Under the pieces are notes generated by a model. The model had not been told where the DNA came from. It did not search any database and saw only the letters and a list, made by a program, of their open reading frames with translations. Shown here piece after piece: positions 1 to 32,000 of a stretch of DNA of 32,000 bases (its first letter is position 1; every line of letters starts with the position of its first letter). The position numbers and the translations under genes were made by a program. The DNA is taken from positions 5,310,001-5,342,000 of the forward strand of contig NZ_RSDW01000001.1 in the NCBI RefSeq assembly GCF_003945235.1, given 5' to 3'. Origin of the DNA: Edaphobacter aggregans. Its GTDB lineage: Bacteria; Acidobacteriota; Terriglobia; Terriglobales; Acidobacteriaceae.

Positions 1-666
1 TACAACGTCTTTCCGCTCGACGATCGTTCCGCGGAACGCTTCAGCCCGGAGGCTACGGGAAGGCCCGTAGGCGCTATTCAGGGCCTGACCAAGGTGACCT
101 ATTGGCCTGGAGTCACACGCGTTCCGGAAGGAAGCGCAATCGATGTCAAAAACAAATCGTTCTCCATTACAGCGGAAGTGACTACGCCGCCTAACGGCGC
201 CGACGGAGTGATTATTACCCAAGGCGGACTCTTTGCCGGTTGGGCGCTGATCGTGGAGAACAGTAAGCCGGTCTTTATTTACAACTGGCTTCAGGAACAG
301 ATTACAAAGGTCTCTTCGCCGGTTACGCTGCCGCAAGGCAAGAGCGTGGTGAAGTTCCAATTCTCTTACGATGGGGGCGGGGTTGGGAAAGGCGGCACGG
401 GTTCTCTGAGCATCGATGACAAGCAGGTCGCCTCGGCGCATATCGAGAAGACTGTACCCTTCCGCTTCTCGCTGGACGAAAGCCTCGACGTAGGCGAAGA
501 TACCGGAACCCCTGTGAGCATGGACTATTTCGACAAGATGCCATTTCGCTTTACAGGCACACTCGGCGGAGTGACGGTGGAAGTGGCTCCGGTTAGCGCA
601 GCACAACAAAAGCAGGCAGCCGACGCCCATCGAAAAGTACAACAAAAAATGGCTGAGCTCAATTAG
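1..666 (+). CDS. Arylsulfatase, C-terminal part (5' end lies outside the window)
   Basis: Frame 1 is open from base 1, before the tracked GVG-start ORF at 94. The product (YNVFPLDDRS...PEGSAIDVKNKSF...GEDTGTPVS) aligns position-for-position with the last ~220 aa of the complete sulfatase at 1280-3688. TAG stop at 664-666. Confidence 0.8.
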   Translation, partial: YNVFPLDDRSAERFSPEATGRPVGAIQGLTKVTYWPGVTRVPEGSAIDVKNKSFSITAEVTTPPNGADGVIITQGGLFAGWALIVENSKPVFIYNWLQEQITKVSSPVTLPQGKSVVKFQFSYDGGGVGKGGTGSLSIDDKQVASAHIEKTVPFRFSLDESLDVGEDTGTPVSMDYFDKMPFRFTGTLGGVTVEVAPVSAAQQKQAADAHRKVQQKMAELN

Positions 667-1279
667 GCGCTGCGTGGCCTTGACGAGTTCGTATCATCTC
701 AAAACAAGGGCGAAGTCCATGGAGCGATTCAGCAGCGCTCTCGCCGTTTCAGTTGGTGATAACAGGGCAAAGCGCTCATCGACGTTTACTAAATCCGATT
801 ACTCCCCATAAACGCCGTTGTCGTAAGCGATCGTGGCCCAGCGAATCTCATTTGTTGCCAAATCGCTTTCTCGTGAATTGAACTCATCTTGAATTCCTTG
901 CGAGAGATGGACATCCGAAGGAGTGCAAGCCCCTGTTGTCGCCAACTAAGATTCAAATGTGTCTAGCAAAGATGGCACAACAGTGAACACAACCCGACAT
1001 ATAGTTACGTATCTTCAGTGCTCGATGAGTGACTTGGCGATTTATCACCAATCGAGAAAAATAACCCCTAAGCGCGTCTGCTGGTTCCAATCAGGCGGCT
1101 GCGGGACATTCCCATAACCTAACCTAAGCCGAGGCATCCCCGACTTACGACTTTGCGTTCATATTGTCGGCACTGTGAGATTGTGCGACCATTGGTCGGC
1201 CAAGCCAGGAGCATCCCGGGACCCCACAACGAACTTTTGCTTTGATCAAAATTTCGACAACTTGAATGGAGAGAGTCCC

Positions 1280-3688
1280 ATGAAACTTTGTGCAAGGTCA
1301 GCATTCACGGGCTATTTCGTAGCAGTTCTTTGTGCCTTCGTCGGCGTTTCCTTTTCAAGTGCACAAGAAGTCTTACCAAGGCCCGAACCGCCATTCAAAG
1401 GCCACATCGGGCGCACGGTGCAGGAATCCACAAAAGACTTCCCTCAAGAGGTAAAAGCCCCCAAGGGAGCACCAAACATCCTGCTTATTCTGACTGACGA
1501 TGTGGGCTTCGGAGCCAGCAGCACATTCGGTGGTCCGATACCTACACCGACCTTCGACCGTCTCGCCAAGAACGGTCTTCGCTACACACAATTCCATACC
1601 ACGGCTCTTTGTTCTCCCACACGCGCGGCCTTGCTAACGGGCCGCAATCATCACTCTGCAAATGCGGGAATCATTATGGAAGGAGGGACCGGCTTTCCGG
1701 GCTACAACACACTCATGTCCAAGAGCGTCGGCTCCTTTGCGGAGGTGCTGAGGCAAAACGGCTACAACACCGCCTGGTACGGTAAAAACCATAACGTGCC
1801 CGATTGGCACACCAGCCAAGCCGGGCCATATGATCTCTGGCCCACAGGTCTGGGCTTTGAATACTTCTATGGCTTTATAGGTGGCGACACCAGTCAGTGG
1901 GCGCCCGCCATCTATGAAAACATCAAGCCCATCGAGCCTCCTCACGATCAAAAGGACTACTTCTTCGATCATGACATGGCTGACCACGCCATCGCCCGTA
2001 TCCAAATGCTGCACGCCGTCGCTCCGGACAAGCCTTGGCTGGCTTATTTCGCACCGGGAACAGCTCACGCCCCTCACCACGCTCCAAAGGATGTGATCGC
2101 AAGCTTCAAAGGGCAATTCGATCAGGGATGGGACAAGGTGCGCGAAGAAACTATCGCCCGACAGAAGGCGATGGGTATCATTCCATCGGACACAAAGCTA
2201 ACTGAGCGCTCCGAGGGAATTCCGGCATGGGATTCACTCGACGCGGATCACAAAAAAGTCTTCGCGCACATGATGGAGGTCTACGCTGCTGCGCTGTCGA
2301 ACTGTGATAGAGAAATCGGGCGAGTGCTGGATGCCATTCAAGATTTGGGTGAACTCGACAACACCCTTGTGATCTACATCCAAGGCGACAACGGGGCCAG
2401 CGCCGAGGGTGGTCAGCAGGGCTTGCTCAATGAAATGGCTTTCTTCAACGCCACACGCGAAGACTTCACGGAAGTGATGCGACGGATGGACGAATTAGGC
2501 GGTCCCACCACGTTTAATCACTACCCAATCGGCTGGGCCCATGCCATGGATACGCCTTTTCAGTGGACAAAACAGATTGCTTCGCATTTCGGCGGCACGC
2601 GCAACGGAATGGTTATTTCCTGGCCCGCCCGCATTAAGGACAAGGGTGGTATTCGTCCACAATTTCACCACGTAATCGACATTGCCCCGACCATCCTGGA
2701 AGCCGTCGGCGTTCAACCTCCGTCTGTCCTTAACGGAGTGCCGCAGAAACCCATTGAGGGCGTGAGTATGGTGTACACATTCGACTCTCCAACAGCGCCG
2801 TCTACCCATCGCACCCAATATTTTGAAATGTTTGCGAATCGCGCCATTTACAACGATGGATGGGTAGCCGCCACAACACCCCCGCTGCCGCCGTGGGCAA
2901 GCGGCAAGACCATAGACATCGATGATTACAAGTGGGAACTTTACGACGTTAGCAAGGACTTTAGCGAAGCCAATAACCTTGCGGCACAGCAACCCAAAAA
3001 ACTTCGAGACTTACAGGAATTGTTCTGGATTGAAGCGGCCAAATATAACGTGCTTCCACTGGATAACAGCAAGTTAGAACGCATGAACGTTGACAACCGT
3101 CCCAGCCTCACGCGGGGGCGCACTGAGTTCACTTTCTTTCCCGGTATGACCCGTATCCCGGAAGGCACTGCACCGAGCATCTTGAACAAATCGTTCCGCG
3201 TCACTGCTGATGTGACCATTCCTGCAAATGGGGCCGATGGGATCTTAATCACTCAAGGCGGACGATTCAACGGTTGGGGGCTCTATCTTCTGGATGGCAT
3301 ACCGGTTTTCCATTACAACCTGGTGGGTGTCCAACGCTATAACGTGGCTGGCCCAGATAAGCTTTCTGCCGGCAAGCACACAGTTGTTGTTGACTTCAAA
3401 TACGACGGCGGCGGCCTTGGCAAAGGAGGTCTCGCCACACTCTCGGTGGATGGAAAGAAGGCAACCGAAGTGAAGTTTGCCCGGACAATTCCGTTCCGCA
3501 TTTCGGCGGATGAGACGCTCGACATCGGCGAAGACACCGGCACGCCAGTCAGCGAGGACTACCACGTCCCCTTCAAATTCACCGGCACTATAGCGAAGGT
3601 CGTCATCCTGTTAGGGGACGAAAAAATCACAGCGACCGACCAACAAGCCATGGAACAAGCCGAGTCCGACTTCGCTGTAAGTGATTAG
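1280..3688 (+). CDS. Secreted type-I arylsulfatase (formylglycine-dependent) with a C-terminal beta-rich extension
   Basis: The tracked ORF is 1175-3688. The preferred start is ATG 1280 (GGAG about 8 nt upstream), which gives the signal peptide MKLCARSAFTGYFVAVLCAFVGVSFSSAQE. It has the sulfatase signature LCSPTRAALLTGR (Cys-x-Pro-x-Arg) plus the LILTDDVGFG and YGKNHN motifs. The C-terminal 200 aa are paralogous to feature 1-666. Confidence 0.9.
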   Translation: MKLCARSAFTGYFVAVLCAFVGVSFSSAQEVLPRPEPPFKGHIGRTVQESTKDFPQEVKAPKGAPNILLILTDDVGFGASSTFGGPIPTPTFDRLAKNGLRYTQFHTTALCSPTRAALLTGRNHHSANAGIIMEGGTGFPGYNTLMSKSVGSFAEVLRQNGYNTAWYGKNHNVPDWHTSQAGPYDLWPTGLGFEYFYGFIGGDTSQWAPAIYENIKPIEPPHDQKDYFFDHDMADHAIARIQMLHAVAPDKPWLAYFAPGTAHAPHHAPKDVIASFKGQFDQGWDKVREETIARQKAMGIIPSDTKLTERSEGIPAWDSLDADHKKVFAHMMEVYAAALSNCDREIGRVLDAIQDLGELDNTLVIYIQGDNGASAEGGQQGLLNEMAFFNATREDFTEVMRRMDELGGPTTFNHYPIGWAHAMDTPFQWTKQIASHFGGTRNGMVISWPARIKDKGGIRPQFHHVIDIAPTILEAVGVQPPSVLNGVPQKPIEGVSMVYTFDSPTAPSTHRTQYFEMFANRAIYNDGWVAATTPPLPPWASGKTIDIDDYKWELYDVSKDFSEANNLAAQQPKKLRDLQELFWIEAAKYNVLPLDNSKLERMNVDNRPSLTRGRTEFTFFPGMTRIPEGTAPSILNKSFRVTADVTIPANGADGILITQGGRFNGWGLYLLDGIPVFHYNLVGVQRYNVAGPDKLSAGKHTVVVDFKYDGGGLGKGGLATLSVDGKKATEVKFARTIPFRISADETLDIGEDTGTPVSEDYHVPFKFTGTIAKVVILLGDEKITATDQQAMEQAESDFAVSD

Positions 3689-5200: not shown

Positions 5201-5840
5201 TCAGACCACTCTTCGCGCAGCTCTGAAGCGAAGCTCTTCGGAATCGAGTTCTCCGGTCTCCATGTCTCGAAAGAAGACTCTGTAGAACCCCGGAGTGACC
5301 AACTCGACTCCCAACTCTTCGAAGCGAAATACCTCGCTGATGAAGATTCTCTTCTTGTGCCAGCTGATATCGCCGCTATTGTTGACCCGTTGCAGTTGGA
5401 GACCCTTCGGATACCTAAACTCCGGCAACTTGCTCGGCAGTCGTAATGCGCTCGGAATGTACAGACTTGCGGGAACCTGGTTGTTCAGGCCCTCATGCGG
5501 GCGCTCGTGGTTAAACACGTACCGGAAGTTATCAAATCGGCTCTGCTGCGCTCGAAGGGATGCCGCAGGTGGTTTGGTCGTGTCCTCCTTCAAAGTGCGA
5601 TGCATTCGCTCATGACGGCCGTTTTGTTGCGGTCTACCTGCTTGAATGCGCTCGTGCACGATCCCGAGCTTCATCCATCCGAGCGAGAGCTTCGACAGAC
5701 CTAAGAGCCCGGTGCCCGCAAACGGTGCTCCGTTGTCTGTTCTGATCCGCGCTGGCATCCCGTACTCCCGCATCGCTGCTTCGCATACCGCCCGAACCTG
5801 GCTTAGATCCATGCGCGAGACGATCTGGCAACGAATCAGT
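5201..5840 (-). mobile_element. IS481-family (rve/DDE integrase core) transposase, N-terminally truncated remnant
   Basis: The translation contains ARIRTDNGAPF, RPQQNGRHERMHRTLK and FNHERPHEGL, which are the second Asp and the Glu region of the DDE core. The frame stays open upstream of the tracked Met (..LIRCQIVSR-MDLSQ..) but hits TAA at about 5841-5843. The N-terminal HTH and first catalytic Asp region are therefore missing. Confidence 0.75.
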
Positions 5841-9409: not shown

Positions 9410-9607
9410 TCATGTTGAAATTTGAGCTCGGTCAAAGGCTCGCTGTGACACTGTCGAGGGATTGCAGACGTGATTCTTGTCGTGCTTCTCAAGTTCGATT
9501 TCGGTTCTTGCATTCGCAATCGTGCGCAAGCATTCCAAACAAATGGAGTCGAAGGAACCATCGCTATTTCGTCGGTGCGGAAAAAAAGGAGGAAGAGTGG
9601 GGATCAT
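9410..9607 (-). CDS. Small CxxC-x19-HxC protein, copy A (65 aa)
   Basis: The internal Met of tracked ORF 9410-9673 gives MIPTLPPFFPHRRNSDGSFDSICLECLRTIANARTEIELEKHDKNHVCNPSTVSQRAFDRAQIST. It is collinear and roughly 65-70% identical with the ORF at 22053-22250, whose N-terminus is fixed by upstream stops. Both have AAGAGAGA about 8-10 nt upstream of the ATG. Confidence 0.7.
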   Translation of the reverse strand: MIPTLPPFFPHRRNSDGSFDSICLECLRTIANARTEIELEKHDKNHVCNPSTVSQRAFDRAQIST

Positions 9608-9963
9608 CGCATCTGTCTCTCTTTCTGGGGAGAACCTCCAACATACGGCAGCTGTACCCAGAAAGATGTTCAATTTAGCTCACGTCAACTTTGTCTTCTC
9701 CGGCAACCTAGCGCCCGGACCCTTCCGGTCCCGGCGCAGCTTTGATGGAAGATGCGTTTGGGGGGCGGTGTTTGTTATCCCTGCCGTCGTTATCTCCATG
9801 CTCTTCACCGTTTCCGCCACATAACCTTAGAGCTGCCAAGCTACAAATCGGGCGGCGGATTGTCCGCCTCGAAGCACACAAGATAATATTTCGTCGATCT
9901 GCAAACCTGCCATATGATTTATGAGATTTACATGATGAGCCCCTGTACGGAAAGAGGCCACTG

Positions 9964-10632
9964 ATGAACGCGCAGAACAATACATTATTTGATCCCGCAG
10001 CGTTTCTAGCGAACGCGGGACTAGGCAGAAGGATTGTCCAAGTCAAGGCAAAAGGAGTCTTTTTTTCACAGGGGAATCCAGCCGATTGCGTTTTCTACCT
10101 TCAGACAGGCCGGGCGAAGCTCACAGTCGTCTCACGAGCCGGAAAAGAAGCCACAATCGCCCTTCTCTCTGCTGGCGAGTTCATTGGAGAAGAGTCGATT
10201 GCTGGGGCGGCTGGACTGAGGATGGCGACGGCGACGGCGATCACCGCATGTACTGCCCTCAAGATAGAGCGAGTGGAGATGATCCGCGTTATGCACGAGG
10301 AGCACGCCTTCTCCGACCTGTTCTTGAAGTTTCTGCTGGCTCGCAGCATGCGAACCCAGGCCGATCTGGTTGATCAGCTTTTTAATTCCAGCGAAAAGCG
10401 TCTGGCGAGAATTCTCCTGTTGATGGCCGAGTTTGGCCAGTCGGGAAATCCGGAAACGCTAATCCCTCAAATCACGCAGGAAACTCTGGCAGATATGATC
10501 GGTACTACGCGATCTCGTGTCAGTTTCTTTATGAATCGTTTTCGCAAACTAGGATTTATTGAATACAACGGCCGCATCAAGGTCCATAAGTCGCTGCTCA
10601 ACGTTGTCCTGCACGATCAGTCCTTCGAATAA
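9964..10632 (+). CDS. Crp/Fnr-family transcriptional regulator (cNMP-binding domain plus C-terminal HTH), paralog 1
   Basis: 222 aa. The beta-roll region reads FFSQGNPADCVFYLQTGRAKLTVVSRAGKEATIALLSAGEFIGEES. The HTH reads ITQETLADMIGTTRSRVSFFMNRFRKLGFI. TAA stop. Confidence 0.9.
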   Translation: MNAQNNTLFDPAAFLANAGLGRRIVQVKAKGVFFSQGNPADCVFYLQTGRAKLTVVSRAGKEATIALLSAGEFIGEESIAGAAGLRMATATAITACTALKIERVEMIRVMHEEHAFSDLFLKFLLARSMRTQADLVDQLFNSSEKRLARILLLMAEFGQSGNPETLIPQITQETLADMIGTTRSRVSFFMNRFRKLGFIEYNGRIKVHKSLLNVVLHDQSFE

Positions 10633-11574: not shown

Positions 11575-12363
11575 CTAATTTTCCTTCTGTTCAATTTTGC
11601 TCACTCTGGCCGTGCCTCGCTTAGCTTTCCTTGATTCATTTTGGGGAGTGTCCAAGATCGAAGCACTTATTGCATTGTGTTCAGGCAATTGATCGTGCAG
11701 AACCACATTAAGAAGCGACTTGTGAACCTGAATGCGGCCGTTATATTCGATAAAGCCGAGCTTCCGAAAGCGATTCATGAAGAAGCTCACGCGCGATCTG
11801 GTAGTTCCAATCATTTCTGCCAGTGTTTCCTGCGTGATCTTCGGAATCAATGTTTCCGGTGCTCCTGGCTTGCCAAATTCCGCCATCAACAGGAGAATTC
11901 TTGCCAAACGCTTTTCGCTTGAGTTGAAAAGCTGATCCACAAGATCAGCCTGAGTCCGCATATTGCGAGCCAGTAGAAACTTCACAAACAAATCAGAAAA
12001 TGCATGTTCCTCATGCATGACGCGAATCATCTCCGCCCGCTCTATCTTTAGCGCGGTACAGGCGGTAATTGCGGTAGCCGTTGCCAGTCGAAGCCCGACC
12101 ACTCCGGCAATCGACTCTTCACCGACGAAGTCGCCCGCGTTGAGCAGGGTGATCGTAGCCTCTTTACCATTCTTCGAAATGACTGTGAGTTTTGCGCGAC
12201 CCTTCTGAAGATAAAACACGGAATCAGCTTGATTTCCCTGTGAAAAGAAATCTCGCTTTGCTTTCAATCGGATGATCCTTCGTCCTAATCCCGCGCTCGC
12301 GAGAAAAGCGGCGGCGTCAAACTTTCCGTTTTCTAACTCAGGCATCAGGACAGCCCTTTCCAT
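11575..12363 (-). CDS. Crp/Fnr-family transcriptional regulator, paralog 2 (with a ~40-aa basic C-terminal tail)
   Basis: 262 aa. By hand count there are ~29 mismatches over ~208 aligned residues against paralog 1. The true start may be the second ATG at 12345 (MPELENGKFDAAAFL), by comparison with paralog 1 (..NTLFDPAAFL). TAG stop. Confidence 0.9.
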   Translation of the reverse strand: MERAVLMPELENGKFDAAAFLASAGLGRRIIRLKAKRDFFSQGNQADSVFYLQKGRAKLTVISKNGKEATITLLNAGDFVGEESIAGVVGLRLATATAITACTALKIERAEMIRVMHEEHAFSDLFVKFLLARNMRTQADLVDQLFNSSEKRLARILLLMAEFGKPGAPETLIPKITQETLAEMIGTTRSRVSFFMNRFRKLGFIEYNGRIQVHKSLLNVVLHDQLPEHNAISASILDTPQNESRKAKRGTARVSKIEQKEN

Positions 12364-12508: not shown

Positions 12509-12592
12509 TCATCCTCGGCGCCAGCGAGAGAATCCCCAACCCCCGCCACCGAGCAAAAAAAGCACTACGAGAACAATCAGTACGGTTTCCAT
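12509..12592 (-). CDS. 27-aa hydrophobic micro-protein (DUF3309-like pattern), absent from the ORF track
   Basis: ATG at 12592 with GAGG 7 nt upstream. The product METVLIVLVVLFLLGGGGWGFSRWRRG* is one TM helix followed by a W/R-rich tail, resembling small stress-associated membrane peptides. Confidence 0.45.
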   Translation of the reverse strand: METVLIVLVVLFLLGGGGWGFSRWRRG

Positions 12593-13153
12593 CTTGTAAC
12601 CTCACTTCTAAGAGGAAACTGGACGGGCCTTTGTAACTGCTGTCCCGCTTCCTCACTACCAACAGCATAAAAGTGGCTCAGACAAATGTCTGGTCAAATT
12701 GGATCACTTTTTCGGCGCGCTCTACCCCCTATGACGCGAAGGGAGGGCTTTATCGAACTCTTGATGCCTTTGCATTGTGATGTCAAGTATGATGAGATGT
12801 GGCGAAGTCGCGGACTACGCCGTTAGAAGAGCTACGACCCACGTCGTGGCGTACTGCAGTTTCTTGCAGAGCTTTGGACGGGAGGCCGTGGATCTGCCGA
12901 CCTTACGCGCGGGTTGAGATGAAACCTAAGCGGTTTTGTTCGTTTTGGCGGCCGCGACACAGCTAGTTTACCGGCCCTCTTTGCTTTCTCCCTTCGCCGC
13001 GAACTCCTACCTCACCTTGAGTGCAATGGCGTCGGTATCGAACCTTGTAGGGTCGCGGCGGCATCGGAGAGGACGACGGCGGGACTGGTATGAGCCGAAA
13101 ATCGGGTGCTTTGGAGTCGGGCGGCCATAAAATCGGAGGCTGGAGTCATTCAG

Positions 13154-16284: not shown

Positions 16285-16998
16285 CTACTTCTTGTCCTGC
16301 CTAGCTTCGGCAATCGTCGCTGCGTGATTCGTTTCCGCAATCGCCTTCATAAAACCCAAGGTCGATTTCGGCGCGGGGACCTTGCCTGACAGGATGGCCT
16401 GGAAGGTCTGATCGCGGCCATAGATCGCCCGCGTGGAGTCGTTGTCTTGCTGAACTACGGCGCCATTCAATGTGATCCCTGCGAACGCACCGCGCGAACG
16501 TGAGTAGGTCAGGATTTCAGTGTTAAGTTTCCAGTCGGTTCCTGCGGACGCATGACGACCCACTGGACCTGCGGCAGCAGACGCATCGCCGCTGATCTGG
16601 AACTTGCTGGAAAGCAGATGTTGGAAACCCTGGTTGTTCATGACCAGCATGACCAAGTCGACGCCTTCCAAGCCGATCTGCAATCCCCAACTGCCTCCTC
16701 CGATGGAGACGAACGCAGGAGAACTCCAGCCCTCGGCCGTGCGGCATGTTGCGATGCCCCGGCCGTGCTCACCGCCGACGACGAAGCCGCCCTTTACCAA
16801 ATGCGGGACTACTACGATGCACTTTGCACCACCCACTACTTCTTCTGGAATTCCTTTGTCCGGGGCATTCATAATGGAATGGAGTACGTCCGAGGACATT
16901 TGCAGGCGCTCAATCGAGTCCTGCTGTCCTGTGGCAGCCCATAGGTTTCCGTTCGCCAGCGTAAATGCGCCGATCAATAGCATGGATGTCATCTTCAT
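16285..16998 (-). CDS. SYLF (YSC84-like / DUF500) lipid-binding domain protein, secreted
   Basis: The start is taken at ATG 16998 (AAGGA upstream), giving the signal peptide MKMTSMLLIGAFTLANGNLWAA. SYLF-type core: ..AKCIVVVPHLVKGGFVVGGEHGRGIATCR...GGGSWGLQIGLEGVDLVMLVMN.. Confidence 0.85.
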   Translation of the reverse strand: MKMTSMLLIGAFTLANGNLWAATGQQDSIERLQMSSDVLHSIMNAPDKGIPEEVVGGAKCIVVVPHLVKGGFVVGGEHGRGIATCRTAEGWSSPAFVSIGGGSWGLQIGLEGVDLVMLVMNNQGFQHLLSSKFQISGDASAAAGPVGRHASAGTDWKLNTEILTYSRSRGAFAGITLNGAVVQQDNDSTRAIYGRDQTFQAILSGKVPAPKSTLGFMKAIAETNHAATIAEARQDKK

Positions 16999-17022
16999 AG
17001 GTTTTCCTTGCAAGGCGGGGAG

Positions 17023-17066
17023 CTAAGAGGGACGGATGTCAGATGGGCTGACTTAGCTCAGAAACC
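17023..17066 (-). promoter_or_regulatory. Conserved upstream block shared with hsp20 (GGTTTCTGAGCTAAGTCAGCCCATCTGA-N8-CCTCTTAG)
   Basis: The reverse strand reads GGTTTCTGAGCTAAGTCAGCCCATCTGACATCCGTCCCTCTTAG and ends 24 nt before the SYLF ATG. It contains the same 18-mer CTAAGTCAGCCCATCTGA as 30804-30821, in the same orientation and at the same ~40-nt distance from the start codon. Confidence 0.5.
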
Positions 17067-17130
17067 ATGAGGGAGCCGATAACAAGGACTCTTCTCCAAA
17101 GTCATTGTTCCAAAGATGGGTGGCAATAAC

Positions 17131-17146
17131 TGAGCTATATAGCTCA
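17131..17146. promoter_or_regulatory. Perfect 16-bp palindrome TGAGCTATATAGCTCA (candidate dimeric TF site)
   Basis: A perfect palindrome read directly, located in the 288-bp gap between the YihY stop and the SYLF start. A second palindrome, TCTGTG-AAA-CACAGA, lies at 17153-17167. Confidence 0.35.
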
Positions 17147-20830: not shown

Positions 20831-21703
20831 ATGTATCACCACGTCAAGAAGCTTATGTATACCGTTACGATTGGAGAGCCCGACCCGAAGTTCGGGAAGA
20901 TGTTGCTTGAGCAGTTCGGCGGAGCTAACGGCGAACTGGCGGCCGCTATGCAGTACTCGATCCAGGGGTTTAACTGTGAAGATGCCGCACGGAAAGATTT
21001 GTTGATGGATATCGGAACTGAAGAACTCAGTCACCTGGAAGTCGTGGGCGCGTTGATTCGCATGCACCTCAAACCTATGAAAGATGAGCGAGAAGCAGCA
21101 GAGGCCGACCCTTTGGTAGCGATTGCAGGCGGCGGTGGCGTGGCCCTTTTTGATTCGATGGGAAATGCATGGACGGCAGACTACCTGAAGATTACTGGCG
21201 ATCTCGCTGTCGATCTGCGCAGCAATATCGCGGCGGAAGCTCGCGCGAAGATCGTGTATGAACGCCTTATTAGCTTCACAGAGGACCAGGGGTCTAAGCA
21301 GGCGCTTCAATTTCTGATGACGCGAGAAGTCACTCATATGCGCGCTTTCACTGCAGCTTTAGACAGCATGGAGAAGCCACAGTTCGCGCTAGGTATTATC
21401 CAACCCACGCCGGGTTTGGTGGACCAGTTCTTCAACGGGTCCACCGGGGAGAGTCAATACGGGGAATCCGATTTCAAAGGACCCTGGAATAGCGGCAATG
21501 GTCTTCACACCGTGCAATCGGAGATTAAAGAGGGCGAGGGCCTGGACGTCACCCCCTACGATCCAAAGCCGGGAACCGAAACGACCTCTCCTGTCGATTC
21601 GACTCCAGTGGGCGAGTGGACGAACGGCGTCGGCGAGAAGCAAAAGGCCCTCCACGAGGCGAAGGAAAGAGATGCGGCAAAATATGCGACTGTTGAAGTC
21701 TGA
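20831..21703 (+). CDS. Manganese (non-haem) catalase
   Basis: GGAGG lies 6 nt upstream of the ATG. The product shows ..FGGANGELAAAMQYSIQG..., EELSHLEVVGA, AAEARAKIVYERL and LMTREVTHMRAF, which are the di-Mn ligand motifs of the Mn-catalase family. Confidence 0.92.
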   Translation: MYHHVKKLMYTVTIGEPDPKFGKMLLEQFGGANGELAAAMQYSIQGFNCEDAARKDLLMDIGTEELSHLEVVGALIRMHLKPMKDEREAAEADPLVAIAGGGGVALFDSMGNAWTADYLKITGDLAVDLRSNIAAEARAKIVYERLISFTEDQGSKQALQFLMTREVTHMRAFTAALDSMEKPQFALGIIQPTPGLVDQFFNGSTGESQYGESDFKGPWNSGNGLHTVQSEIKEGEGLDVTPYDPKPGTETTSPVDSTPVGEWTNGVGEKQKALHEAKERDAAKYATVEV

Positions 21704-21762: not shown

Positions 21763-22052
21763 TGTTGCCTTCGTATCAAATAAAACGCTTGAACGACGAC
21801 CAAGCTTTTGATCTTTGTCTCTCTGCATCGTATGAAATAGATTTCGATTCCTATCGAAAGTCTGCCATTCGGCGGTGATACCATCCTCGCCCTCTCATGG
21901 TCACGTCATTCGTAAAGGAGTCGCAGTGGTGAGTCTGTTTGAGTGAAGCTCGCGAAAAGTTGAAGAGGGGTTGCACCATGCGTCCATCTATTCTCGTAGA
22001 CAACGCACTCGCATAGGACTAGGCTTAAGCCTCACAAGAGAGAGGCGACAAG

Positions 22053-22250
22053 ATGGTTTTCACTCTTCCGCCCTTCTTCCCGCACAGACGAAATCGAGAC
22101 GGTTCGTTCGACTCCATTTGCCTGAAGTGCTTGATCACAATTGCTAACGCAAGAATTGAAGCCGATCTGGCAGCGCACGACATGGATCACGTCTGCAATC
22201 CTTCCATCTTGTCCCAACAGGCTTTTGATCGCGCTCGGACACCGCGCTAA
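22053..22250 (+). CDS. Small CxxC-x19-HxC protein, copy B (65 aa)
   Basis: MVFTLPPFFPHRRNRDGSFDSICLKCLITIANARIEADLAAHDMDHVCNPSILSQQAFDRARTPR. Upstream in-frame stops fix the start. It is a paralog of 9410-9607. The antisense ORF 22032-22310 is judged spurious. Confidence 0.7.
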   Translation: MVFTLPPFFPHRRNRDGSFDSICLKCLITIANARIEADLAAHDMDHVCNPSILSQQAFDRARTPR

Positions 22251-23346: not shown

Positions 23347-23642
23347 TAATCCTCCTGAGTACCGTGTAGAGAACTGGACACCATTCATCGGGGCGCTTGC
23401 GCCAGTATTTGGCCGCTCCGATAGACTCAGGCAAAAGTGCCCTCCTCCCATTGAGGACAAGAGGGCGAATTAGTTTTCTGATGGGTAGTTTCCTGCCTGA
23501 ACAGATACTAACTTTTGTTGCTGCAGCAAAGCTGTTCCAAATTGCTCACTATGTGCATTTCGTAAGAACCTGTTCTTTTCCTAGTTAAGCTAAACAACAC
23601 TACTCATAAATTTGGATCCAAACCACTGAGGTTTACTTATGC

Positions 23643-25489: not shown

Positions 25490-25857
25490 GCATCTCCTTT
25501 CTTTCGGCTTTCACAAGAGTATTTTCTCGGAAGGCAGAGTGAATTGCAGAGTCTGGTTTGTTCGATCAATCGAACGAAATAGTCAGCCGGAACCGTTATC
25601 TACCTGTCCTTTTGCGTAATTCCTGGGGATGGATAGGTTGAGCCTATAGGACGCTGGCGAAGCCTAGAGCTATTCCCTAGGGTAGAGAAGGATCGGATGA
25701 TTGTAATGTTGCATAATGGGCCGTTACGCGGCACGTTTGTCCAATCAAGCGTATGGTTAGGACAGTACCTGAGTTTCAGCTTCTCGCCTTCAGCATCCAT
25801 TGCTTCGCTCCAGACGAGCACCTTTCCAAGTAAGCAACAGGATGACTGGAGAAGCCC

Positions 25858-30272: not shown

Positions 30273-30644
30273 TTGAAAAATTCTGAATATTCTTTCGGTT
30301 CTACATCGAACGATCTGCTATTTAAGCTCGATCCAAAGCTGCCGCATTCTTATCTCAATTATCAGGTAATCGCGCAAAACAGAGAAGAAGTGCAGGATAT
30401 CCAGAACGCCCCATCCATCAGTATCAGCACATACCTGACCGACTCGGCACAGACGCAGCTTCTCACGACAATTAGCGTTTACAGTCAAAGAGGCGAAAGC
30501 ACTGATCAAATTCGATTACTCTACATGAACGCTGTTGCGTGTTCGGTATGGCACGATATGGGCAGGTCAGCCCTAATAATCGGTTCAGTACATCGTCCAC
30601 CGAAGACGACTTCGCTGACATTTGGAGTGCCATTTAGTGAATAG
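30273..30644 (+). CDS. Hypothetical protein (weak call, TTG start, AT-richer region)
   Basis: A 123-aa ORF with AAGGA 9 nt upstream of the TTG. I recognise no family. Confidence 0.3.
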   Translation: MKNSEYSFGSTSNDLLFKLDPKLPHSYLNYQVIAQNREEVQDIQNAPSISISTYLTDSAQTQLLTTISVYSQRGESTDQIRLLYMNAVACSVWHDMGRSALIIGSVHRPPKTTSLTFGVPFSE

Positions 30645-30792
30645 AAGGTGTTTTAGGTCGCATTACGCGGCCCCTCAGATGCATCTTCGACCTTGGCAGT
30701 AGCGACACCAATTAGGGCGCAACCGTATCTTGACAACAATAAGTGCACAAGCCTACGGTTAACACCGAGCGAGTCTCTTTCTTACTCTTTCA

Positions 30793-30836
30793 GGTTCACT
30801 GAACTAAGTCAGCCCATCTGAAGTTTTTCCTCTTAG
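30793..30836 (+). promoter_or_regulatory. Conserved upstream block shared with the SYLF gene (GGTTCACTGAACTAAGTCAGCCCATCTGA-N7-CCTCTTAG)
   Basis: The 18-mer CTAAGTCAGCCCATCTGA (30804-30821) is identical to the reverse strand of 17039-17056. The flanking GGTT..CTGA and downstream CCTCTTAG are also shared. The block ends 41 nt before the hsp20 ATG. It contains nested repeats CTGA-N6-TCAG-N5-CTGA and a CCCATCT box. Confidence 0.5.
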
Positions 30837-30855
30837 ACCTACTGCTAAGGAGGAA
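30827..30855 (+). promoter_or_regulatory. SD-sequestering hairpin in the hsp20 leader (candidate RNA thermometer)
   Basis: TTCCTCTTAG (30827-30836) pairs with CTAAG-GAGGAA (30845-55). That gives 10 bp with a single bulged G (30849 or 30850) and the 8-nt loop ACCTACTG. The AAGGAGG Shine-Dalgarno (30847-30853) lies entirely inside the stem, and the ATG is at 30863. Confidence 0.5.
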
Positions 30856-30862
30856 CTGCGTC

Positions 30863-31363
30863 ATGACACTATTGACCGGTTGGGAATCCGTCCGCGAATT
30901 ATCCGCTATGCAAGACCGCATGAACCGCATGAACCGTCTTTTCCGCGAGTCGTATGGGTCCGAAGTGCCGGAAGAGGCGTTGACAACCACCACCCTCGCA
31001 CCGCCAGTGGACATCTACGAAGACGAGCACAACATTATTCTGAAGATCGAAGTCCCGGGCATCGACGAAAAAGAAATTGATGTTCGCATTCAGAACAACA
31101 CCCTCACCGTCCAAGGCGAGCGCAAGATCGAGAAGGAAGAGAAAGAGGAGAACTTCCGCCGCGTCGAGCGGCAATACGGAAGCTTTACTCGCTCGTTCAC
31201 ACTTCCCAGCTCCGTGGATCCGGGGCAAGTGAGCGCCCGCTGTGATAAGGGCGTGCTGAAGATTAGCTTGGCCAAGAAGGTTGAAGCCAAGCCCACGCAG
31301 ATCAAAGTCAATGTTGGCGGCGAGAAGACGCTCGAAGCCGTGACTCCAGGAAAGGCTGCATAA
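30863..31363 (+). CDS. Hsp20/alpha-crystallin small heat-shock protein
   Basis: 166 aa. Alpha-crystallin domain: PPVDIYEDEHNIILKIEVPGIDEKEIDVRIQNNTLTVQGERK...FRRVERQYGSFTRSFTLPSSVD...GVLKISLAK. Confidence 0.92.
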   Translation: MTLLTGWESVRELSAMQDRMNRMNRLFRESYGSEVPEEALTTTTLAPPVDIYEDEHNIILKIEVPGIDEKEIDVRIQNNTLTVQGERKIEKEEKEENFRRVERQYGSFTRSFTLPSSVDPGQVSARCDKGVLKISLAKKVEAKPTQIKVNVGGEKTLEAVTPGKAA

Positions 31364-31381: not shown

Positions 31382-31420
31382 AATGGGAGGTTGGCTTTAT
31401 ACTGCCTCCCATTCTATTTT
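31382..31420 (+). terminator. Rho-independent terminator of hsp20
   Basis: AATGGGAGG (31382-31390) pairs with CCTCCCATT (31405-31413) around a 14-nt loop, followed by CTATTTT. It starts 19 nt after the stop. Confidence 0.6.
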
Positions 31421-32000
31421 CCCTCCACGCGCCTCCGCCGCTGTGTCGCCAGTCTGTCTGCCCCAGCGTTCCGCCAGCGTCGAGCACTCACAATACATGA
31501 AAAAACTCTACGAGGGGGCGTTCCTCACCTCCGAAGATAAACAATCTCCCGTAACTCCATCGTCAACTATGAAGTCGGCCTTCACCAGCCAGGAGGCCGC
31601 TAGGATTAGTTACGAGAACCGCTCTTGTCGTCAGTTATCCCGTTATTTCTGGATTGTCGGCAATCCGGGAAAGAATCCGCGTTACAAATCTCGATCAGCG
31701 CAAAATCGCCAATTCACTCATCGTGGAATGCGAGCCACATGGCCGAATATGTATGGTCCGCCGTCCGACTGCAAGGAAAAAGCTAGAAGCGAACAAGACA
31801 AGTCTGCGCAAATGTATTCGGCCTTTGGTCGAGCACTGCGCTCCTGGCCAGGATGAGTTGCGCGCGTATCTGTCCTTATTAGTCGGTCGGTTGTTGCAAA
31901 CCAACGCGTCCAGCAGGTTTCCAGACACGCCGTTGTGACTGTTCTTTCGTCCTTGCTGTTTCTGTGCAGACCTTGGTGGGTAAACTTTAAGCCGTCGTCG

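Follow-up and report, generated by a model that had tools for sequence, protein, structure and literature searches.

A conserved leader element upstream of general-stress genes in Terriglobia, a candidate family of cis-regulatory RNA

Several described systems place a regulatory element close to the start of a stress gene. RNA thermometers, such as those of the ROSE kind, conserve structure and show little sequence conservation; the operator CIRCE, bound by HrcA, is reported to act also at the mRNA level; and the recognition helices of CRP and FNR read TGA through a Glu and an Arg. Acidobacteria dominate many soils, and Terriglobia are among the most abundant soil bacteria, but to our knowledge the regulation of stress and dormancy genes in Acidobacteria is essentially unknown. 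Here we describe an element shared by two stress genes, one encoding a small heat-shock protein (Hsp20) and the other a SYLF/Ysc84 protein, in a 32,000-nucleotide (nt) stretch of the genome of Edaphobacter aggregans (contig NZ_RSDW01000001.1, positions 5,310,001 to 5,342,000; hereafter the window). Its centre, an 18-mer, is in our reading (to which we give a probability of roughly 0.6) the centre of a conserved cis-acting leader RNA that controls a set of general-stress genes after transcription has started, and the element would represent a new family of cis-regulatory leader RNA in Terriglobia, folding as a hairpin/pseudoknot or as a two-state switch.

The 18-mer CTAAGTCAGCCCATCTGA occurs exactly at 30804-30821 on the plus strand and at 17039-17056 on the minus strand, and a search of the window found no further copy even at three mismatches. 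Its chance expectation is 0.01, and two hits appeared in 0 of 100 shuffles. The original prediction, made from the letters of the window, had reported this pair as an identical block within about 30 nt of similarity; the block is real, and the two regions are 81% identical over 37 nt (17039-17075 and 30785-30821). As also predicted, it ends 41 nt before the ATG of hsp20 (30863) and 40 nt before that of SYLF/Ysc84 (16998, minus strand), and it contains the nested repeats CTGA-N6-TCAG and TCAG-N5-CTGA; the 8-bp complementarity between GAGCTAAG and CTTAGCTC proposed for the SYLF copy was recovered too. Farther downstream, CCTCTTAG is common to both copies (30829-30836 and 17030-17023). The conserved unit is far larger than first described: it comprises about 110 nt and consists of a promoter, a 5' hairpin region of about 20 nt, a core of about 36 nt, a pyrimidine tract, and CTTAG. 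The features of the two copies in the window, in which MFE denotes the minimum-free-energy fold, are as follows.

30730..30735, plus strand: hexamer TTGACA, the -35 element of a predicted sigma-70-type promoter of the hsp20 copy (sequence and relatives; function inferred)
30754..30759, plus strand: hexamer TACGGT (TAnnnT class), the -10 element of the hsp20 copy after an 18-nt spacer (sequence and relatives)
30767..30787, plus strand: predicted mRNA 5' end (conserved GAG, 30767-30769) and hairpin P1 (GAGCGAG ... CTTACTC), from conservation and the MFE fold
30788..30823, plus strand: conserved core UUUCAGGU-UCA-CUGA-aCUAAG-UCAG-CCC-AUCUGAAG, which holds the 18-mer (30804-30821) and can form hairpin P2
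30804..30808, plus strand: CUAAG, 5' strand of helix H4, covarying with the downstream CUUAG
30824..30831, plus strand: pyrimidine-rich linker UUUUUCCU of the hsp20 copy, constrained in length
30832..30836, plus strand: CUUAG, 3' strand of H4, which in the MFE fold pairs instead with the flank of the Shine-Dalgarno (SD) sequence (CCUCUUAG:CUAAGGAGG)
30845..30853, plus strand: CUAAGGAGG, the SD region of hsp20 (sequence and MFE fold)
30863..31363, plus strand: hsp20 coding sequence, 166 amino acids, PF00011
17127..17132, minus strand: CAGTTA, a non-canonical hexamer at the -35 position of the SYLF copy, kept as CAGyTA in SYLF-type copies
17104..17109, minus strand: AACAAT, hexamer at the -10 position of the SYLF copy after a 17-nt spacer (sequence and relatives)
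17039..17070, minus strand: SYLF core UCAUGGUUU-CUGA-gCUAAG-UCAG-CCCAU-CUGA, with the 18-mer at 17039-17056 and an outer stem unlike that of the hsp20 type
17020..17027, minus strand: CUUAGCUC, 3' strand of H4 in the SYLF copy, forming 8 bp with GAGCUAAG (17052-17059), a helix used by the MFE fold
16285..16998, minus strand: SYLF/Ysc84 coding sequence, PF04366, with a lipoprotein-like N-terminus

A scan of one genome per GTDB species with the pattern CTAAGTCAGCCYATCTGA matched at least 120 stretches, essentially all from Terriglobia (Acidobacteriaceae, Korobacteraceae, Sulfotelmatobacter, and Acidiferrales). The matches listed comprise 141 unique contexts, 120 of which have a start codon 28-50 nt downstream in the sense orientation. 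At least eight gene families follow the element in them, namely those of a 106-amino-acid ABM-domain protein (45 contexts), Hsp20 (27), SYLF (24), and a 67-amino-acid protein (12), and further DUF2934, DUF4440, BON, and carboxylesterase genes; the suggestion that functionally unrelated stress genes share a regulatory signal is thus supported well beyond the window. Flanking DNA in these matches is randomised across families around an element that is kept. Relatives found through the Hsp20 protein carry the block in the same place before hsp20 and SYLF and also before a third gene; the closest Hsp20 relatives include one from an Alloacidobacterium metagenome-assembled genome (MAG). About 215 unique copies were collected overall; all run in the sense direction, most of them 28-50 nt ahead of a start codon, and none was seen inside a coding region. 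A sample free of motif bias was obtained by fetching 80 metagenome loci with nothing but an alignment of ABM proteins; the element is present in all 71 of those with enough upstream sequence (44 copies are exact, 14 and 7 differ by one and two mismatches, and 6 lack 1 nt).

Whole hsp20-type promoter-leader modules also precede some ABM and 67-amino-acid protein genes, and modules of this kind were therefore exchanged or copied. One 8-kb locus (L054) has five copies within about 3.3 kb before different small genes; targets therefore cluster in islands. At another (L021), a group II intron (RF01999 and RF00029; 2012-2134 and 3757-3832) adjoins an element-bearing ABM gene.

The position of the element relative to upstream promoters was examined with a custom scan of 136 contexts, in which positions were counted from the first base of the 18-mer. 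The -10 hexamer of the best promoter match starts at -54..-49 in 99 contexts, and a -35 hexamer within one mismatch of TTGACA stands at the matching position in 83; most of the matches at -54..-49 consist of a perfect TTGACA, a 17-nt spacer, and TAnnnT, such as TAGCAT, TAGGGT, or TACGGT. No conservation was found upstream of the -35 hexamer, and no further promoter-like site in the 218-nt hsp20 intergenic region. (A sigma-70 scan of 30400-31000 returned nothing, at thresholds of at least 4/6 matches per hexamer that exclude TACGGT.) A conserved GAG lies 7-9 nt after the -10 hexamer (-39; 30767-30769 in the window), and from sequence alone transcription is predicted to start there, about 40 nt before the block, giving a 5' untranslated region (UTR) of about 100 nt. 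The block would lie inside a transcribed leader, because a sigma-70-type promoter is found at a fixed distance upstream.

Two other promoter types were encountered. SYLF copies have CAGyTA-N17-nATnAT or (A/G/C)AnnAT at the promoter position and not TTGACA/TAnnnT (L016, L018, L026, L028, L057, and window 17104-17132 on the minus strand), and may use a different sigma factor or an activator. About 30 ABM loci (L131-L205) show a third promoter-like type, ...GGCCACTCAAATGC... or ...caacaagTTGCGc...GGGCCACTCAAATGCaac..., roughly 60-30 nt before the core and without TTGACA-N17-TAnnnT. Because the same core follows three promoter types, it appears to act independently of the promoter.

Among the matches listed, conservation spans GAG at -39 to CTTAG at +29..+33, with the consensus GAG..(P1)..CTCTTTCAGGTyCyCTGAaCTAAGTCAGCCCATCTGAAGTt-(pyrimidines)-CTTAG, and T is found at +20, +21, and +23 in 122, 105, and 102 of the 141 copies. 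Between the end of the 18-mer and TTAG there are 11-12 nt in 113 of 133 copies; the stretch between TTAG and the start codon is less constrained (18-31 nt). Within the unbiased ABM set, CTGA is kept in 70 of 71 copies (one CTGG), TCAG in 71, the second CTGA in 69 (two CTGG), and CTAAG and CTTAG in 68 each, and these segments, written as CUGA, UCAG, CUGA, CUAAG, and CUUAG, are invariant or changed only to G.U-compatible bases. Between them the GTyCy segment has 10 variants of 4-5 nt, with yCy shortened to 2 nt in 4 of the 71 copies; the single A becomes AA in 9, so that CTGA-N6-TCAG becomes N7; and CCCAT is the most variable segment of the core, with nine variants (TCCAT in 7 copies, CCAT by deletion in 6, CTCAT in 4, TTCAT in 2, and others), the change of CCC to CC turning TCAG-N5-CTGA into N4 in those 6. 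The linker ranges from 8 to 12 nt. Loop positions -8, -6, -1, and 9-11 vary in both sequence and length and stem positions are nearly invariant, a combination of fixed stems with indel-tolerant loops that, judged from the alignment, fits an RNA and not a rigid protein-binding palindrome.

The CUAAG of the block is complementary to a CUUAG 24 nt downstream, and the original prediction had allowed for RNA-level pairing of (GAG)CTAAG with CTTAG(CTC); compensatory changes in this helix, H4, back that idea. The three CTAAG exceptions in the unbiased set read CATAAG, and exactly those three carry CTTATG in place of CTTAG. The lineage with CATAAG, a Korobacteraceae lineage, was followed through protein homologues, which added CAUAAG:CUUAUG copies and revealed one more step, UAUAAG:CUUAUA. 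Across 215 unique elements the pairing is CUAAG:CUUAG in 191, CAUAAG:CUUAUG in 6, UAUAAG:CUUAUA in 3, and CUAGG:CUUAG, with a G.U pair, in 3; none combines a changed 5' strand (CAUAAG or UAUAAG) with an unmatched partner. When sequences of equal linker length were aligned (alignment A4), pair 15-51 was CG in 18 and UA in 3, and pair 16-50 was AU in 7 and had a gap at both positions in 14; no cell is unpaired, and the observed score was reached in 2 of 500 shuffles. This two-step series, a co-insertion of A with U followed by a compensatory substitution of C-G by U-A, at positions 24-30 nt apart and in nine unique sequences, shows at the level of sequence comparison that pairing of the 5' end of the 18-mer with the downstream CUUAG is under selection. 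A 131-sequence alignment from the genome scan, in which the 18-mer was fixed by the query and variation inside it thereby excluded, gave almost no covariation for either of the folds described below.

A few divergent or decayed copies (L173, minus strand, near 2043; L175, minus strand, near 2045; L006, minus strand, near 11941) are possibly relaxed or non-functional leaders. Divergent copies before an hsp20 paralogue have the core TCAGGCCAGCCGAAG and CTTATG for CTTAG without a matching change in CTAAG, and another copy has a 3-nt deletion, GTCAGCCC---TGAAGT.

The core is built of four alternating complementary segments, UCAG (-14..-11), CUGA (-5..-2), UCAG (5..8), and CUGA (14..17), which allow two folds. 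Fold 1 is the long hairpin P2, in which UUUCAGGU pairs with AUCUGAAG (outer 8 bp) and CUGA with UCAG in the inner stem, with a 3x3 internal loop and an apical loop aCUAAG; modelled at 30 C, it has an energy of -11.7 kcal/mol. For the hsp20 leader, the MFE is exactly P1, P2, and an anti-SD:SD hairpin formed by CCUCUUAG and CUAAGGAGG. Fold 2 consists of two small hairpins, 1:2 and 3:4, the latter enclosed by H4, and is the type of the SYLF leader MFE (H4 and H3), in which the inner CUGA:UCAG persists and AUGG:CCAU takes the place of the outer stem. Copies of the SYLF-B group have neither the outer P2 stem nor the U run. No conserved base of the core stays unpaired in both folds, and the positions that both leave free (-8, -6, 9-11, and the linker) are those that vary; the near invariance of the core would then be due to a double constraint from the two folds. 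H4 and CUGA:UCAG could also coexist as an H-type pseudoknot. Its loop 1 would measure 1-2 nt, its stems would adjoin with no nucleotide between them, and the linker of 8-12 nt would lead back to the apical loop; the narrow range of linker lengths fits such a topology. The inner pairs of P1 differ between gene families (AU 42, GC 38, GU 20), with covariation that is not significant against controls. ABM leaders have in addition a gene-specific hairpin overlapping the SD, CAACC...GGAGGUUG (L132, L139, L143), whose CAACC:GGUUG reads AAACC:GGUUU in L190, L192, L195, and L205, an apparent compensatory change.

We propose that the element would work as follows. Each target gene (hsp20, SYLF/Ysc84, ABM, DUF2934, BON, and others) would have its own promoter, usually of near-consensus sigma-70 type, and a start at the conserved GAG would yield a 5' UTR of about 100 nt made up of P1, the core of about 36 nt, and the 8-12-nt pyrimidine linker with CUUAG. 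The apical loop of P2 would present CUAAG, which together with H4 would give the H-type pseudoknot; alternatively, the two small hairpins (1:2 and 3:4) would form, enclosed by H4. With H4 open, the linker and CUUAG would pair with the SD region, as in the hsp20 MFE. Control of ribosome access is suggested because CUUAG can pair either with the upstream CUAAG or, jointly with the linker, with the SD. Folding of the core would decide access to the ribosome-binding site, and possibly mRNA stability or transcription read-through, and a single post-transcriptional signal (candidates are a protein, a small molecule, temperature, or Rho) would govern the general-stress genes. What is generally looked for in a structured leader is found here, namely sense orientation, a constrained distance to the start codon, and the compensatory changes in H4, with the position in a 5' UTR being predicted.

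Several observations weigh against this proposal. The stretch of about 36 nt of near-invariant sequence exceeds what structure alone would need and suggests a sequence-specific partner. The H4 covariation comes from one lineage, the ABM genes of Korobacteraceae, and represents two evolutionary events, not many. Neither P2 nor the small hairpins show compensatory changes, only invariance; tabulating variants produced no informative double changes, including a table of S1, S2, S4, and S5 drawn up to separate P2b, H0, and H3. Fold 2 (nested) is 3-6 kcal/mol less stable than P2 in main-type leaders. Folding energies of the window leaders are not unusual (z = -1.19 for hsp20 and -0.44 for SYLF), the RNAalifold consensus on 123 leaders is weak (-3.0), and replacing the upstream sequence by shuffled versions does not raise the predicted SD accessibility. 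Promoters and transcription start sites (TSSs), finally, are assigned here from consensus and conservation.

Proteins also come into question as partners of the conserved sequence, and the gene found most often near the element encodes a Crp/Fnr homologue. This gene occurs in 33 (by clustering) or 35 (by tblastn) of 120 listed 8-kb loci, more than any target gene family, and is often convergent with that of the 67-amino-acid protein or directly upstream of hsp20 or ABM (loci L017-L124). Two paralogues lie in the window.

9964..10632, plus strand: Crp/Fnr-family regulator, the commonest neighbour of the element elsewhere (association only)
11575..12363, minus strand: second Crp/Fnr-family paralogue, inverted, with 79% nucleotide identity to the first over 479 nt

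The element might accordingly be a DNA operator like that of CIRCE/HrcA, a 36-bp imperfect palindrome (TTCAGGT-N3-CTGA-N6-TCAG-N3-ATCTGAA) between promoter and start codon, at which a repressor, most plausibly the adjacent Crp/Fnr regulator, would block elongation or initiation until stress inactivates it. The frequent neighbourhood of the Crp/Fnr gene speaks for such an operator, as do the TGA-N6-TCA geometry of CRP/FNR boxes in the inner C-TGA-N6-TCA-G, a near-consensus promoter, which implies negative control, and the sequence invariance of both stems and some loop bases. However, the half-site spacings are not fixed (N6 to N7 in 9 of 71 copies, N5 to N4 in 6, and the left spacer from 5 to 4 in 4), SYLF-type copies swap the outer left arm entirely, and the centre of the palindrome lies at about +41 from the predicted TSS, far for an operator. 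Co-changes of CTAAG and CTTAG 24 nt apart are expected of base pairing and not of protein contacts, and other copies in the same genome keep the ancestral sequence. The recognition helix of the regulator, RSRVSFFMNRF, lacks the TGA-reading Glu and Arg, and the regions upstream of its own genes carry a different recurrent motif, TGAGCA-N4-TGAACA (e.g., GTGAGCAAAAGTGAACATC). The original prediction had given a repressor site of the CIRCE or HAIR kind equal standing with other explanations; the 1-nt spacing changes disfavour it, and we retain it as the main rival, though one that is unlikely to be correct. The Crp-like regulator could form the transcriptional branch of this stress response; that it binds the palindromic core DNA is less likely, because the indels and the covariation speak against it.

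The motif TGAGCA-N4-TGAACA was found before Crp-like genes at L025, L037, L038, L047, L073, L089, L108, L116, L120, L123, and L124, often together with a second copy that resembles its reverse complement, AATGCTCAATATTGCTCAT, and lies roughly 70 nt farther from the gene. The motif may be the regulator's own site or the site of a response regulator. It occurs in the window at 11588-11603, 9667-9682, and 23533-23548, all on the minus strand, and is not enriched there at three mismatches. Class II activation of CRP type, with TAGnnn as the -10 element (for which a centre at -41.5 fits), was considered and dropped given the upstream promoter, the N7 variants, and the H4 covariation.

An RNA thermometer of the ROSE or fourU kind would place the signal in the RNA, as in our proposal, and have the linker and CUUAG mask the SD in the cold and melt on heat shock. 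The element lies in the 5' UTR of a small heat-shock gene, the leader is pyrimidine-rich, and the hsp20 MFE, in modelling, masks the SD by pairing CCUCUUAG with CUAAGGAGG. Yet SD accessibility, as modelled, does not change between 25 and 45 C and is the same as in shuffled controls, the energy gap between P2 and the nested fold barely moves with temperature, and the complementarity of the linker to the SD is no greater than in composition-matched shuffles. Neither ROSE nor any other family of Rfam 15 was matched by cmscan at the gathering threshold in the window and 10 further loci, and at E<=10 only a chance DUF805b fragment appeared in 30700-30900. The core, moreover, is nearly invariant across Terriglobia families, and most of its targets are not heat-shock genes. 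Direct sensing of heat by the leader therefore seems improbable to us.

A transcription attenuator seems about equally improbable. Here P2 and the U/C-rich run would act as a weak intrinsic terminator, or the C-rich, G-poor leader as a Rho-loading site, and the small hairpins with H4, or a bound factor, would permit read-through under stress. The P2 hairpin is followed directly by UUyUCyC, the SYLF-B copies lack the outer P2 stem and the U run alike, and the four segments can pair as 1:4/2:3 or 1:2/3:4, a layout like that of classical attenuators. The stem, however, is interrupted and rich in AU and GU pairs, the run of U is brief and often reads UUCUCC, a terminator scan of 30400-31000 came back empty, and the 3' strand of H4 would be transcribed only after the putative termination point.

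The promoter of an alternative sigma factor, with GCCCATCT as a sigma-32-like -10 element or CTGAAC/TCTGA as elements of the extracytoplasmic function (ECF) type, is largely refuted and very improbable. The original prediction had drawn attention to GCCCATCT, which fits the consensus CCCCATNT at 6 of 7 specified positions and stands upstream of hsp20 among other genes, and had correctly found no -35 element at the 13-15 nt spacing, where CAGGTyC or AGGTyCy is found and no TTGAA-like hexamer. The likeness does not hold up: a canonical promoter (TTGACA-N17/18-TAnnnT) is present about 50 nt upstream at a fixed distance, CCC(AT) is the segment that varies most and is shortened in 6 of 71 copies, conservation in the supposed spacer equals that in the boxes, and the H4 covariation indicates that the region is transcribed. 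ECF, sigma-E, sigma-54, sigma-28, and SigB-type consensus sequences were compared by eye, and no spacing fits.

A dispersed or mobile repeat resembling a miniature inverted-repeat transposable element, or a recent duplication without regulatory meaning, which the hsp20-type modules before some ABM and 67-amino-acid protein genes might suggest and against which the original prediction was to be measured, can be dismissed as hardly credible, for copies are always sense, at a constrained distance from start codons, and were never seen in coding regions, they are kept from Acidobacteriaceae and Korobacteraceae to Sulfotelmatobacter and Acidiferrales amid randomised flanks, and 2.9 million viral contigs yielded one match, an ordinary hsp20 module. 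That match (L241, IMG/VR, 417-550), an entire hsp20 promoter-leader module, lies at the end of a 66.8-kb contig and is probably a host flank or a misclassified contig.

The window as a whole looks like a stress island: besides hsp20, SYLF/Ysc84, and the two Crp/Fnr paralogues, it encodes OmpA, BrkB, DUF892, and Mn-catalase proteins and several response regulators. Transcription of hsp20 would end shortly after its stop codon, as read from the sequence.

31382..31420, plus strand: terminator-like hairpin AATGGGAGG ... CCTCCCATT followed by CTATTTT, right after the hsp20 stop codon

This hairpin suggests that hsp20 is monocistronic. A site at 12608-12629 on the minus strand, GGCCCGTCCAGTTTCCTCTTAG, before a DUF3309-like small open reading frame (ORF; ATG at 12592), resembles the 3' part of the leader, GCCCATCTGAAGTTTTTCCTCTTAG, without the core, and may be a degenerate or related leader. 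Other repeats in the window include ATGAGTGAMTTGGCGATTT, found at 1025-1043 on the plus strand and 31703-31721 on the minus strand with 0 and 1 mismatch (expected 0.02) and lying within longer inverted matches of 30-42 nt that also involve 753-782, 21307-21337, and 25537-25565; at some sites these may be the N-termini of paralogous ORFs. An inverted repeat of 185 nt with 75% identity (9424-9608 and 22052-22236) and a direct repeat of 98 nt with 70% identity (151-248 and 3185-3282, in ORF 94-666 and in the C-terminal part of the sulfatase ORF 1175-3688) are both probably paralogous coding segments. An integrase-core (rve_3) fragment within the island, at 5201-5812 on the minus strand, hints at past mobile-element activity near the stress genes.

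If the leader RNA is what it seems, it would be a new class of cis-regulatory RNA with hundreds of members in metagenomes; a full-text literature search with part of the block sequence and with keywords found nothing relevant to the element or to the control of stress and dormancy in Acidobacteria. Its conserved core of about 55 nt, in which the defined helix CUAAG:CUUAG lends itself to mutation and compensation, offers a testable handle; the motif search supplies a ready list of targets (Hsp20, the ABM-domain protein, SYLF/Ysc84, DUF2934, BON, DUF4440, and carboxylesterase); and the strongly linked Crp-like regulator has a role that can be tested. For Terriglobia MAGs, the element could help to annotate promoters, 5' UTRs, and start codons more accurately. 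A bolder proposal, which we offer tentatively and think more apt to fail than to hold, is that Terriglobia run their general stress response largely after initiation, combining near-consensus housekeeping promoters with an ultra-conserved bistable or pseudoknotted leader on dozens of stress genes per lineage, read by one trans-acting factor. This would amount to an 'RNA regulon' in the role played elsewhere by sigma-B, EcfG, or RpoS, with an RNA-binding protein, a small molecule or alarmone, or Rho as the factor.

Set beside known systems, the element shares single traits with each. It recalls sigma-32 (RpoH) promoters in that a block upstream of hsp20 contains GCCCATCT, a sequence resembling the CCCCATNT -10 box, but it differs from them in having no -35 element, a CCC that is variable or deleted, a canonical promoter upstream, and a position within what we take to be the transcribed region. 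CRP and FNR sites (TGTGA-N6-TCACA and TTGAT-N4-ATCAA) are approached by the C-TGA-N6-TCA-G core and by the strong linkage to a Crp/Fnr gene; unlike them, the element has N7 in 9 of 71 copies, a predicted centre at +41 and not at -41.5 or -61.5, and a linked regulator without the canonical recognition residues. With ROSE and other RNA thermometers it has in common a multi-hairpin 5' UTR of about 100 nt before hsp20 and a pyrimidine stretch that can pair with the SD in a 3'-proximal hairpin, whereas it matches no Rfam model, has a nearly invariant core, precedes genes of at least eight unrelated families, and shows in modelling no temperature-dependent opening of the SD.

The H-type pseudoknot riboswitches (preQ1-I, SAM-II, and guanidine-III) offer a similar possible topology, with CUGA:UCAG as stem 1, CUAAG:CUUAG as stem 2, and a long loop 3, a similar size of 40-55 nt, and a similar place directly upstream of the ribosome-binding site. 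In the element, by contrast, stem 2 excludes the SD, the coexistence of the stems is inferred, the stems are invariant and the loops variable, which is the reverse of typical aptamers, and the heterogeneous stress genes suggest no ligand; these last two points speak against a ligand-binding riboswitch. CIRCE/HrcA, and with it HAIR/HspR, likewise places an inverted repeat between a sigma-70-type promoter and the start codon of a heat-shock gene, but the element is unrelated to it in sequence, varies by 1 nt in half-site spacing, and has one pair of arms that covaries like an RNA helix; its linked regulator is of Crp/Fnr type and not HrcA or HspR, and its targets are general-stress genes and not chaperone operons.

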